Source: an uncultured bacterium (GTDB lineage: Bacteria; Patescibacteriota; Minisyncoccia; Phycocordibacterales; CAJBMK01). Taken from it: 24,000 bases of DNA. Positions 4,550 through 24,000 of the stretch are shown here, in pieces (positions within the stretch are counted from its first letter, which is position 1; every line of letters starts with the position of its first letter). The notes under the pieces are model-generated. The model saw only the letters and a list, made by a program, of their open reading frames with translations. It had not been told where the DNA came from and searched no databases. The position numbers were made by a program, and so were the translations under genes. The stretch lies in assembly GCA_903954165.1 (NCBI GenBank), contig CAJBMK010000052.1:11950-35949 (forward strand). Reading direction: 5' to 3'.

Positions 4550-4714
4550 TCCCTCAGTGCCCACAACAAAAACGGCTATCGTGCTGTTTTTTTGCGGGCG
4601 CTAGCAAAGCGTCTGCACGCTATGCGCGAGGGATTCGAAAGGGTTCTCCGTTATATCTTAGAAATTCTTATTTCTAAGATATCGGAAACCCGTACTGAAC
4701 CTGTAAGGTTCGAA
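4550..4714 (+). repeat. tRNA-3'-flank structured element, scaffold type 2, matched to tRNA-Val, nested in the tRNA-Arg locus (copy A2)
   Basis: It starts with tccctcagtgcccaca, which is 15/16 identical to the tRNA-Val 3' end at 21041-21056. Anti-Val segments are gggcgct (4596-4602) and gagggattcgaa (4628-4639), split by H2 at 4604-4625. P3 is gggttctccg/cggaaaccc. P4 is the 13-bp hairpin at 4653-4682. It ends with a second copy of gtactgaacctgtaaggttcgaa (4692-4714). The decayed tRNA-Arg tail cttcctaccgac follows at 4715-4726. Confidence 0.7.
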
Positions 4715-11697: not shown

Positions 11698-11834
11698 GTG
11701 CGAATTTGTTACATAAACGTCTAATAAGAATCTAGGTTTATGAATTAGTTATATCAAAATTAGACTCTTTAAACAATCTAAAAAACAGTGGGGGGTTCGA
11801 ATTATATACAGAATGGATATCCGACAAATGTATA

Positions 11835-12016
11835 AGGTGCGCCGATTACATCAATAGGTACTTTTTGATTTTATTTTCGTCTGGGAAGACTCAATAAAAT
11901 AGCGAAAAGTCTTTCGAATCTCACGCGCAAGCAATGCGGGCGGATTGCTTGCTCTCATCCGCCTAAAAAATCAGCACGCGTGGAGTGTGTGATTTTTAAT
12001 AGCGGAGAATGTTGGT
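11835..12016 (-). repeat. tRNA-3'-flank structured element, scaffold type 2, Ser-matched, detached from any tRNA (copy S3)
   Basis: Read on the minus strand: attaaaaatcacacactccacgcgtgctgatttttt (H1), ggcggatgaga, H2 gcaagcaat/attgcttgc, gcgtgagattcgaa, P3 actttt/aaaagt, and P4 attttatt/aataaaat tipped gtct-tccc-agac. About 11912-12010 is a near copy of about 14233-14325. The 3' module is degenerate. Confidence 0.6.
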
Positions 12017-14127: not shown

Positions 14128-14316
14128 TGGTGGAGGAGGTGAGACCGCGAGTACGCTTTTCGAAGCTTACAGCTTCAGTACAGGTTTCCCATTTTTTCAC
14201 GATAGGAATCGCTCAAAAATAGGGGAGAACCTTTTCGAATCTCACGCGCAAGCGAAGCAGTTCGCTTGCTCTCCTCCGTCTAAAAAATCAGCACGCGTAG
14301 GGTGTGCGATTTTAAT
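14128..14316 (-). repeat. tRNA-3'-flank structured element, scaffold type 2, Ser-matched (copy S2)
   Basis: Read on the minus strand: H1 aaaatcgcac...gtgctgatttt, gacggaggaga, H2 gcaagcgaa-ctgc-ttcgcttgc, gcgtgagattcgaa, P3 aaggttctcccc/gggaaacct, P4 attttt/aaaaat, and the module gtactgaagctgtaagcttcgaa. A 14-nt insert follows, then the tail tctcacctcctccacca (plus strand 14128-14144). Confidence 0.7.
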
Positions 14317-14500
14317 TGCGGAGGAGGTGAGACCGCGAGTACGCTTTTCGAACGTTACACGTTCAGTACCCCGATTGGATTTTCTCTGCGTTGGGAAACT
14401 TGAGAAAATGCTCAATCAGGCTTCGAATCTCACCCGGAAGTGCTCCCAGCACTTCCTCTCCTCGCGCCAAATCAAAACCGCCCTGAAAGGCGGTTGGATT
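14317..14500 (-). repeat. tRNA-3'-flank structured element, scaffold type 1, Ser-matched (copy S1)
   Basis: Read on the minus strand directly after the tRNA-Ser CCA: H1 aaccgcc-tttcag-ggcggtt (plus 14476-14495), flanked by ccaaatc/gatttgg. Then ggcgcgaggaga, H2 ggaagtgct/agcacttcc (plus 14436-14456), gggtgagattcgaa, P3 cctgattg/caatcggg, and P4 attttctc/gagaaaat tipped gtt-tccc-aac. The module is gtactgaacgtgtaacgttcgaa. A 14-nt insert follows, then the tail tctcacctcctccgca (plus 14317-14332). Confidence 0.7.
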
Positions 14501-20980: not shown

Positions 20981-21054
20981 GGGCGCTTAGCTCAGTTGGT
21001 TAGAGCATCTCATTTACACTGAGAGGGTCGGGGGTTCGAATCCCTCAGCGCCCA
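20981..21054 (+). tRNA. tRNA-Val (anticodon UAC), no encoded CCA
   Basis: Acceptor gggcgct/agcgccc. D arm gctc-agttggtta-gagc. Anticodon arm tctca-ttTACac-tgaga. Variable region gggtc. T arm ggggg-ttcgaat-ccctc. Discriminator a at 21054. Confidence 0.9.
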
Positions 21055-21217
21055 CAATAAAAACGGCTATCGTGCCGTTTTTTTGCGGGCGCTAGCAAAG
21101 TGTCTGCACACTTTGCGCGAGGGATTCGAAAGGGTTCTCCGTTATATTTTGGAAATTCCCATTTCCAAAATATCGGAAACCCCTACTGCCGCTGTAAGCG
21201 GAGAATCATTTGTCGGC
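21055..21217 (+). repeat. tRNA-3'-flank structured element, scaffold type 2, matched to tRNA-Val (copy C)
   Basis: H1 is aaaaacggc-tatcgt-gccgttttt (21059-21082). gggcgct (21087-21093) is the reverse complement of the acceptor 3' strand at 21047-21053. H2 is gcaaagtgt-ctgc-acactttgc (21095-21116). gagggattcgaa (21119-21130) is the reverse complement of 21035-21046. P3 is gggttctccg/cggaaaccc. P4 is the 13-bp hairpin at 21144-21173. The module is ctactgccgctgtaagcggagaa. A strongly decayed tail follows. Confidence 0.7.
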
Positions 21218-21254: not shown

Positions 21255-21291
21255 AATTTTGTTGTAATTTTGTTGTAATTTTGTTGTAATT
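21255..21291. repeat. Tandem repeat, 11-nt unit aattttgttgt x 3.4
   Basis: Perfect copies at 21255-21265, 21266-21276 and 21277-21287, plus a partial aatt. Confidence 0.8.
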
Positions 21292-23867: not shown

Positions 23868-23930
23868 GCGCGGGTGTTGTAATTGGTAGCCAAGTACGCT
23901 TGAGGTGCGTATGCCGTAAGGCGTGTAGGG
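23868..23930 (+). tRNA. tRNA-Leu (anticodon GAG), 5' three-quarters only; interrupted at the T-loop
   Basis: Acceptor 5' strand gcgcggg. D stem ttg/caa with a class II D-loop, taattggtagc. Anticodon arm tacgc-ttGAGgt-gcgta. Variable arm tgcc-gtaa-ggcgtg. T-stem 5' strand taggg. No T-loop, T-stem 3' strand or cccgcgc acceptor strand appears in the remaining 70 nt of the window. Confidence 0.5.
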
Positions 23931-24000
23931 AATAACTTATCTGGTGGTTCTGCGAGCTTGTTAAATGCTCAGCCAACGATATCGTATACAACTGATAAGG

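Follow-up and report, generated by a model that had tools for sequence, protein, structure and literature searches.

The closest described objects to the elements reported here are the tRNA-linked repeats (TLRs) of Escherichia coli, namely the RttR/rtT units behind tyrT-tyrV and the rrA, rrB and rrF units behind 5S rRNA (Egan and Landy, 1978, reviewed in PMC8144298). [quoted passage not shown] The element analyzed here likewise lies directly downstream of a tRNA gene and ends in a copy of that gene's last 18-19 nt, and judged by sequence and predicted fold it would be a much better structured variant of the same kind.

The DNA examined, which we call the window, is a 24,000-nt stretch of one contig from an uncultured bacterium whose genome spans 1.0 Mb in 88 contigs, carries 42 tRNA genes and is 96.65% complete. 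An earlier note, made from the letters of the window without database searches, had drawn attention to a structured unit behind tRNA-Val, copy C, and to a second unit of similar sequence, copy A2. The anatomy of these copies is as follows (window coordinates, strand, feature).

20981-21055, plus strand: tRNA-Val(TAC), found by ARAGORN and Rfam; its 3' end from 21041 on is the element-borne replacement tail.
21035-21040, plus strand: site 1, the T-loop TTCGAA, which is the left junction; the similarity between C and A2 begins here, and orthologous sites are empty at loci L214 and L203.
21041-21056, plus strand: tail tccctcagcgcccaca, consisting of the T-stem 3' strand, the acceptor 3' strand and the discriminator; in the fold, the sense strand of helix P1.
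21059-21084, plus strand: H1, a terminator-like hairpin (A-run, cggc-tatcgt-gccg, T-run), in the fold the apex of P1.
21085-21093, plus strand: antisense a, gcgggcgct, complementary to the acceptor 3' strand.
21095-21116, plus strand: H2, a 9-bp branch hairpin, gcaaagtgt-ctgc-acactttgc, with a CTGC loop; covariation at 9 of 9 pairs.
21119-21130, plus strand: antisense b, gagggattcgaa, complementary to the T-stem 3' strand and T-loop and ending in site 2, TTCGAA.
21132-21182, plus strand: core (P3 and P4), supported by covariation and near-identical between copies with unrelated arms.
21132-21141 with 21174-21182, plus strand: P3, gggttCtccg / cggaaaccc, with a bulged C; covariation.
21144-21156 with 21161-21173, plus strand: P4, a 13-bp hairpin with loop tccc; covariation.
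21183-21188, plus strand: linker CTACTG (family consensus GTACTG).
21189-21201, plus strand: P5 hairpin ccgc-tgtaa-gcgg, a class-2 right end, followed by AGAA; covariation.
21202-21217, plus strand: right junction agaa and the decayed displaced tRNA-Val tail, tcatttgtcggc.
4550-4714, plus strand: copy A2, Val-matched, nested in the right end of copy A1 behind tRNA-Arg(GCG).
14128-14332, minus strand: a Ser-matched type-2 copy behind tRNA-Ser(TGA).

The 165-nt unit contains no ORF. A2 has the same module order as C and is bounded by a 23-nt direct repeat, GTACTGAACCTGTAAGGTTCGAA; the P5 hairpins of the two copies differ (ccgc/gcgg in C versus aacc/ggtt in A2), and the P5 of A2 is identical to the P5 of its host copy A1. 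The crossover at site 1 can be placed no more finely than GTTC|GA..A. Three further observations concern the rest of the window. A perfect 11-nt tandem repeat, aattttgttgt, in 3.4 copies (21255-21291) lies between the decayed tail of C and acyP. A third Ser-matched copy (11831-11968, minus strand), with a truncated left tail and a different core, lies beyond a 661-aa gene, so that this gene sits between element copies. At 23868-24000 a tRNA-Leu(GAG) gene stops short of its T-loop (..GTAGGG|AATAAC..) at a distance of 70 nt from the end of the contig; no other place in the assembly yielded the missing 3' part, and the gene is intact at the syntenic place in relatives.

The earlier note had claimed that C and A2 are alike along their whole length and that many of their differences fall in helices as paired changes. 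The two copies align without gaps from the T-loop TTCGAA to ...TACTG, and six of the 13 differences in these 148 nt pair up as three compensatory changes, two of them in P4 and the third in H2. The individual changes are those that the note had read: T-A to C-G and G-C to A-T at two pairs of P4, a compensatory T-A to C-G in H2 beside one disruptive T to A, and gccg to gctg in H1, which creates a G.T wobble. A C-to-T difference in the tail gives a G.T wobble against antisense a, and four of the 13 differences lie in loops or linkers. When 13 random substitutions were placed on the fold in 200,000 simulations, at least three compensatory pairs arose by chance with a frequency of 9e-5. C and A2 share one fold under RNA parameters (-92 and -87 kcal/mol; z of -10.9 and -10.1), and C takes the same fold under DNA parameters (-63.6, z of -12.4); the minus strand of C folds too, as near-perfect hairpins must on either strand. 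In C, antisense a is indeed fully complementary to the acceptor 3' strand of tRNA-Val and antisense b to its T-stem and T-loop, and the decay of the tRNA-distal tail of C is evident at 21206-21217.

The paired changes between C and A2 are real and are kept across about 200 copies, and the structure is real and conserved. Among 19 type-2 copies of the source genome, double changes occur at 26 of 34 pairs. Two larger alignments, both fitted to the model and composed of copies related to one another, extend this result: in 89 copies from the window and 33 relatives, retrieved with model R1, 96.0% of helix cells are paired (versus 30-51% when the 3' partners are slid), double changes occur at all 34 pairs, and there are 868 double-change cells versus 220 in shuffles, a value reached by none of 500 shuffles; in 106 copies from a separate pattern scan of GTDB genomes, whose pattern fixes part of P3, 97.3% of cells are paired (versus 33-53% slid) and 33 of 34 pairs have double changes. 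All nine pairs of H2 covary, and 97.5-98.1% of its cells are paired in the two larger alignments. The note had named uncorrelated arms of P4 and H2 in a larger alignment as the outcome that would speak against its reading; the arms of H2, P3, P4 and P5 are clearly and strongly correlated. Its appeal to selection on the fold stands in part. The correlated arms in both larger alignments argue for constraint on a folded RNA or single-stranded DNA, but selection is not the only route to such pairing, because templated correction of quasi-palindromes in replication gives the same pattern.

Helix lengths and positions are conserved across the family while their sequences turn over completely. Several asymmetric features are also kept across families, including the bulged C of P3, a tandem G.A, the CTGC and TGTAA loops and the one-sided branch H2. 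In copies whose arms, H2 and P5 are unrelated, core identity (TCGAAA through GTACTG) is still 94-100%, in comparisons within genomes (G023, G017 and G050) as well as between families (G050 versus G038); the core is thus the constant module, and the arms are matched to each locus. An apparent sharing of core and flank by the Ala(CGC) and Leu(TAA) loci, found at the end of a contig and perhaps produced by assembly, was set aside. Right ends are of two classes: 44 of the 89 copies end in ..TTCGA (class 1), and the other half end in ..AGA, without TTC (class 2). The displaced tail begins at GA or AA in all copies of the 89-copy set, a pattern consistent with exchange at GTTC|GA. H1 has a strong T-run (at least six T in the 7 nt just before antisense a) in 78 of 180 copies, and in 22 of 180 it is replaced by a (G/A)CGAAG(C/T) mini-hairpin of the GCGAAGC type, a motif that forms an unusually stable DNA hairpin.

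On contigs C42, C79, C62, C14 and C87 of the source genome, G000 (loci L078-L083), the position behind the tRNA is taken instead by a larger core type (..GAGGCGGGGTCGCGGAAATTT..ATCCGTGACC, then GAAAGCGTACTCGCGG), the tRNAs being Glu, Ser(GCT), Leu(CAG) and Gln(CTG); its antisense arms are contiguous, without H2. A 14-nt 'insert' in Ser and Gln loci, AAGCGTACTCGCGG, is the same as the right end of this larger core type, as if left by deletion between TCGAA boxes. Window positions 14332-14345 and 14141-14154, on the minus strand, are listed with this type.

The earlier note had also proposed that pairing is maintained to the functional tRNA 3' end and not to the displaced copy. The antisense arms form a duplex of -29.3 kcal/mol on average with the upstream tail versus -22.9 with the displaced downstream tail, and a margin of more than 3 kcal favors the upstream duplex in 54 of 87 copies and the downstream duplex in 10. 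A strong arm duplex is found in 91% of tRNA-adjacent copies versus 33% of nested or orphan copies, and pairing in H2, P3, P4 and P5 is 97.1% in the former versus 96.2% in the latter. The trend that the note described is therefore present across the family, but its cause is ambiguous: the upstream tail forms the left end of the element itself and has the protection of tRNA function as well, and tRNA-adjacent copies may be younger. A2 keeps its arm pairing though no live tRNA-Val precedes it. On whether the antisense segments compete with the cloverleaf, a point that the note had raised, the predicted fold is that a read-through RNA would have its acceptor and T arms pulled out of the cloverleaf. 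The antisense matches the genomic trailer and not CCA, which rules out a reading as a retroviral primer-binding site.

These units are common within a limited group of bacteria. By eye, about 33 of the 39 assessable tRNA genes of the source genome have a matched element behind them, with several scaffold types. Model R1 has 43 matches in this genome and 0 to 28 copies per relative; matches were found in 45 of 61 genomes, each from a different family of the same order, and 16 of the 61 have none. In the rest of the class 20 of ~118 genomes have matches, mostly weak, and a phylum-wide sample gave matches in 0 of 150 genomes. To judge from these searches, the R1 scaffold is centred on the order. 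The lineages recovered by the GTDB pattern scan are Paceibacterota/Parcubacteria (Taylor-, Yonath-, Vogel-, Campbell- and Nomurabacteria). What we describe is a set of protein-less insertion elements of ~165 nt in the tRNA T-loops of one Paceibacteria-type order of Patescibacteria, with weaker relatives elsewhere in the class. Lying behind about five in six assessable tRNA genes of a 1-Mb genome and present in three quarters of the sampled families, they make up a major, apparently undescribed part of genome architecture in ultra-small bacteria and are a cause of assembly breaks at tRNA genes.

Comparison of orthologous loci bears on how the copies arose. Syntenic relatives share the order tRNA-Arg(TCT), tRNA-Val(TAC), acyP, the next gene and tRNA-Leu(GAG). 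At two of these loci (L214 and L203) the tRNA-Val site is empty, the tRNA being followed by its own terminator and then acyP, and at another (L208) it is occupied by a Val-matched element whose core is different. The element behind tRNA-Val in the window is, on this evidence, an insertion. The metagenome scan that supplied these empty and occupied sites, made for strain-level relatives of the locus, reached a best protein identity of 67%, with no strain polymorphism readable. All copies are co-oriented with the tRNA and abut GTTC/TTCGA, and the long tail repeat is element-borne rather than a target duplication. In many copies the upstream tail and H1 differ from the downstream tail and its terminator, as would be expected of a unit that arrives with a tail and hairpin of its own and displaces those already there. 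Some copies stand in tandem or are nested, and their displaced tails are in decay; the displaced repeat is intact in many copies, decayed in C and truncated in A2, and accessory genes lie between some copies.

We propose that these units are a family of T-loop insertion elements whose fold may act in single-stranded DNA as a substrate of recombination, a proposal that we consider about as probable as its negation. Each unit supplies a replacement tRNA 3' end, usually with H1; after H1 come the complement of the tail, split by H2, then the P3/P4 core, the GTACTG linker and P5, and the old tRNA tail remains as a decaying direct repeat. Each class-1 unit contains the full reverse complement of the sense target nnTTCGAA-TCCCTC-AGCGCCC-A, split by two branches in the order antisense a, H2, antisense b ending in TTCGAA, core and GTACT, and GAAnn, the last being the P5 5' strand. 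The P5 3' strand and the right-end TTCGAA, joined to the left-end tail, rebuild the target. When A2, C and the Ser-matched type-2 copy were folded as circles, P5 and P1 abutted on one continuous sense strand and the core emerged opposite TTC^GAA. Circularisation of a unit would thus join its right end (..TTCGAA) to its tail and create one continuous sense strand; this strand would pair with the two antisense pieces, H1 and the TGTAA loop capping the ends and H2 and the core branching off at the side, and the product would be a duplex copy of the T-loop-to-acceptor DNA of the tRNA gene. The antisense arms may then have a double role, pairing with the tail of their own unit and serving as a target guide of ~20 nt, with strand exchange at GTTC|GA of the T-loop. 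The terminator would shield the tRNA transcript from the antisense arms, which would otherwise misfold the tRNA; it makes sense as insulation because read-through RNA would disrupt the cloverleaf. The module order after integration is A|b-loop-b'-a'-core-a|B. When a single strand of the CTX attP(+)/attC type integrates in folded form, it gives an order of the form A|b-loop-b'-a'-...-a|B.

Several observations favor DNA over RNA as the folded molecule. G.T wobbles make up 1.8-2.5% of helix pairs, versus 6.3% in the stems of 207 tRNAs from the same genomes, and P1 joins sequence on either side of the terminator-like H1. Together with the match to the trailer and not to CCA, the destruction of the cloverleaf by read-through and the identical fold under DNA parameters, this scarcity of wobbles and the course of P1 across a terminator point to DNA. 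So does the mini-hairpin that replaces H1 in 22 of 180 copies, given the stability of its motif in DNA. The folding strand is evidently the tRNA-sense strand, since G.T exceeds A.C (51 versus 29 and 82 versus 27, with about a third of the G.T cells from two fixed positions) and since P4 has a conserved tandem G.A that would be pyrimidine mismatches on the other strand; these two features rule out the minus strand. Against the DNA reading, a tandem G.A and a recurrent G.U at a fixed position are typical also of functional RNAs, and the ~12% of copies without a terminator-type H1 could be co-transcribed with the tRNA. A single-strand-DNA mechanism is the best-supported account, at roughly even chances of being right.

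The same fold might instead work as RNA: the stretch from antisense a to P5 could be transcribed, by read-through of H1 or from its own start, and guide some recombinase or nuclease to the T-loop and tail, as bridge, seek and omega RNAs do. A structured scaffold of ~130 nt with two guide-like segments matched to the target fits this, as do the constancy of the scaffold beside variable guides, the tandem G.A and position-specific G.U that flank the P4 internal loop, and the 22 of 180 copies in which H1 is not of the terminator type. Wobbles only a third as frequent as in tRNAs argue against it, however, and no promoter-like site was seen between H1 and antisense a, where the T-run of H1 abuts the arms; IS110 was not found in the source genome, nor TnpB in five copy-rich genomes, and no Rfam match appeared even at E<=5. 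We regard an RNA role as unlikely. A purely mutational origin, in which template switching at quasi-palindromes copies changes from arm to arm so that inverted repeats stay perfect without selection, would explain why Watson-Crick pairs fill 94-97% of helix positions with very few wobbles, and how the C/A2 lineage turned a G.A-containing P4 into a perfect 13-bp stem. It does not account for the asymmetric features that persist across families (bulged C, tandem G.A, fixed loops, one-sided H2) or for helix lengths and positions that are conserved despite complete sequence turnover, and we think it quite improbable as the whole explanation. As such switching still needs DNA hairpins to form, it is compatible with a fold acting in single-stranded DNA.

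Two other accounts concern mobility itself. The units could be trailer modules that serve the host in termination, 3' processing or as a source of small RNA, like some E. coli TLRs, and that do not move. They stand behind about 33 of 39 assessable tRNA genes in the source genome, H1 resembles a terminator, and TLRs of E. coli rrn operons yield sRNAs that bind Hfq or CsrA (PMC8144298). Yet 16 of 61 related genomes have none, orthologous sites may be empty or occupied, copies are tandem or nested with decaying displaced tails, near-identical cores occur in different families, and such a module would, as RNA, misfold the tRNA; we give this account as little credence as the mutational one. Alternatively, the unit could be a miniature double-stranded att-site element, CIME-like or a remnant of island deletion, moved in trans by the tyrosine integrase of a phage or island. 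The T-loop sublocation, the restored tRNA 3' end, the displaced direct repeat, tandem accretion and accessory genes between copies are all in keeping with this, but the covariation of four hairpins irrespective of their sequence is not explained by protein-binding sites in duplex DNA, most genomes have one Xer-like tyrosine recombinase alone, and no integrase is linked to the elements in 80 loci. We consider it the least probable of the accounts weighed here, and the single-stranded DNA fold remains our preferred one.

We searched for an enzyme that might move the elements, and no transposase, integrase or reverse-transcriptase family among those searched in the related genomes tracks the copies. 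The source genome has one Xer-like tyrosine recombinase and two RAYT-like ORFs. Counts of Y1/RAYT genes do not track copy number across the 61 genomes, and this family was rejected as the mover: five genomes with 10-17 copies (G046, a single contig with 17 copies, and G005, G042, G060 and G021) have no Y1, and G010 and G020 have 4 Y1 genes and no copies. There is a hint of more diverged cores in the genomes without Y1 (11 genomes). Two of the copy-rich genomes, G005 (15 copies) and G021 (10 copies), had no match to Y1, reverse transcriptase, serine recombinase or TnpB, and none of the last three families fits as the mover. The IS110 DEDD transposase (PF01548) has no match in the source genome at its 96.65% completeness, IS91 Y2 was found in 2 of 61 genomes and was likewise rejected, and one tyrosine recombinase per genome is near-universal among the 61. 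ORF clustering of 80 loci recovered housekeeping synteny alone, with no gene family recurring next to the elements. The mover may belong to the host, act in trans from a phage or plasmid, or be a member of an undescribed family.

Some genes met during this search deserve separate mention. In G046 (locus L015, C1:438055-441186) the gene of a large serine recombinase is directly adjacent to tRNA-Ser(CGA) and to tRNA-Glu(TTC), which has an element; with its place beside two tRNA genes, the recombinase gene probably belongs to a separate integrated island and was not retained as a mover. On contig C21 of the source genome (locus L085, 427-491 and 1455-1505), a 232-aa RAYT-like ORF is bracketed by REP-like palindromes, TATCGCGAGGTT/AACCTCGCGATA, whose 9-mer occurs 25 times in the genome. 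By its distinct repeats, this ORF and its REPs appear as a second, separate hairpin-repeat system, unrelated to the tRNA elements. The source genome also has an orphan paralogue family of 19 ORFs with a shared N-terminus (..NCPELAEKLKKVQ..) and variable C-termini, on contigs C3, C6, C26, C28, C31, C46, C54, C62, C67, C68, C72, C76, C80, C83 and C85; its 19 members have no Pfam match and no linkage to the tRNA elements.

A literature search found no paper that describes this element family, and Rfam at gathering and permissive thresholds matched the tRNA alone, the other hits being weak hairpin look-alikes. Resemblances to described mobile systems are nevertheless numerous. Islands and prophages that target tRNA genes through tyrosine integrases with T-loop sublocation, together with their cis-mobilisable remnants, also insert in the 3' part of the gene and make it whole again with a copy that they carry; they too leave a displaced direct repeat and occur in tandem arrays, but the element here is 165 nt long and has no integrase gene, and their att sites have neither an antisense copy of the target nor covarying hairpins. 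The bridge and seek RNAs of IS110/IS1111 are likewise structured non-coding scaffolds of ~150-190 nt with programmable, target-matched segments; the present element, however, carries no gene at all, its genome has no DEDD transposase, and its wobble deficit argues against an RNA fold. Single-strand 'peel and paste' elements of the IS200/IS605 type, their protein-less derivatives (PATEs) and REP/REPIN-RAYT systems are hairpin-rich, use pairing within the element to help define the cleavage or target site and commonly have non-autonomous copies; their strand-specific insertion beside a short target motif may have a parallel here. Compared with IS200/IS605, the complement of the target is ~20 nt here and not 4-5 nt, the end hairpins H1 and P5 share neither sequence nor shape, Y1 genes do not follow copy number, and the RAYT-like gene of C21 has other REPs.

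Further parallels are the attC sites of integrons and the attP(+) of CTX phage. There, folding of one strand brings two inverted segments together as a duplex recombination site; it is the structure and not the sequence that is conserved, the strand is marked by extrahelical features on one side, and the module order after integration is the same as in our element. Those systems use IntI or XerCD with core sequences of their own (GTTRRRY, dif), whereas our element rebuilds the T-arm/acceptor duplex of a tRNA and no dedicated integrase was seen; its site, GTTCGAA, has a C where the integron core RYYYAAC/GTTRRRY requires R. As defining features of the transposon families compared here were looked for and not found, we place the element in none of them. 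Taken together, a constant scaffold with a variable target complement of ~20 nt, repair of the target gene by the tail that the element brings, and a fold in which the target duplex is rebuilt would constitute a new principle by which mobile DNA chooses its sites.

The likeness to the E. coli TLRs goes beyond position. The tyrT repeat starts in the T-loop right after TTCGA (TTCGA|ATCC...), as in our element; the units are tandem; and each tyrT unit contains two TTCGA boxes together with an antisense box of 10 nt, GGGGAAGGAT, and forms a fold-back with the end of the tRNA. In E. coli K-12 (locus L199, 1286300-1288100) the tyrT/tyrV antisense box complements the T-stem and acceptor strand of tRNA-Tyr. 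The rrnB unit lies between two terminators, so that tail and terminator are duplicated; the rrnB T1-T2 spacer (locus L280, at the 5S end) holds a GCGAAGC mini-hairpin. The differences are that E. coli units have no homology to model R1 (the best score in the tyrT region is 4 bits, with E about 1) and lack the H2/P3/P4/P5 scaffold. It is conceivable, though we would not expect it, that the family consists of programmable single-stranded DNA insertion elements in which arms of ~20 nt choose the target and a conserved 60-nt core recruits a host enzyme or one not yet known, and that E. coli TLRs are their decayed relics. The T-loop breakpoint, the tail repeat and the antisense box that both kinds of unit have in common make the TLRs, a puzzle for 45 years, testable as a question about insertion elements.
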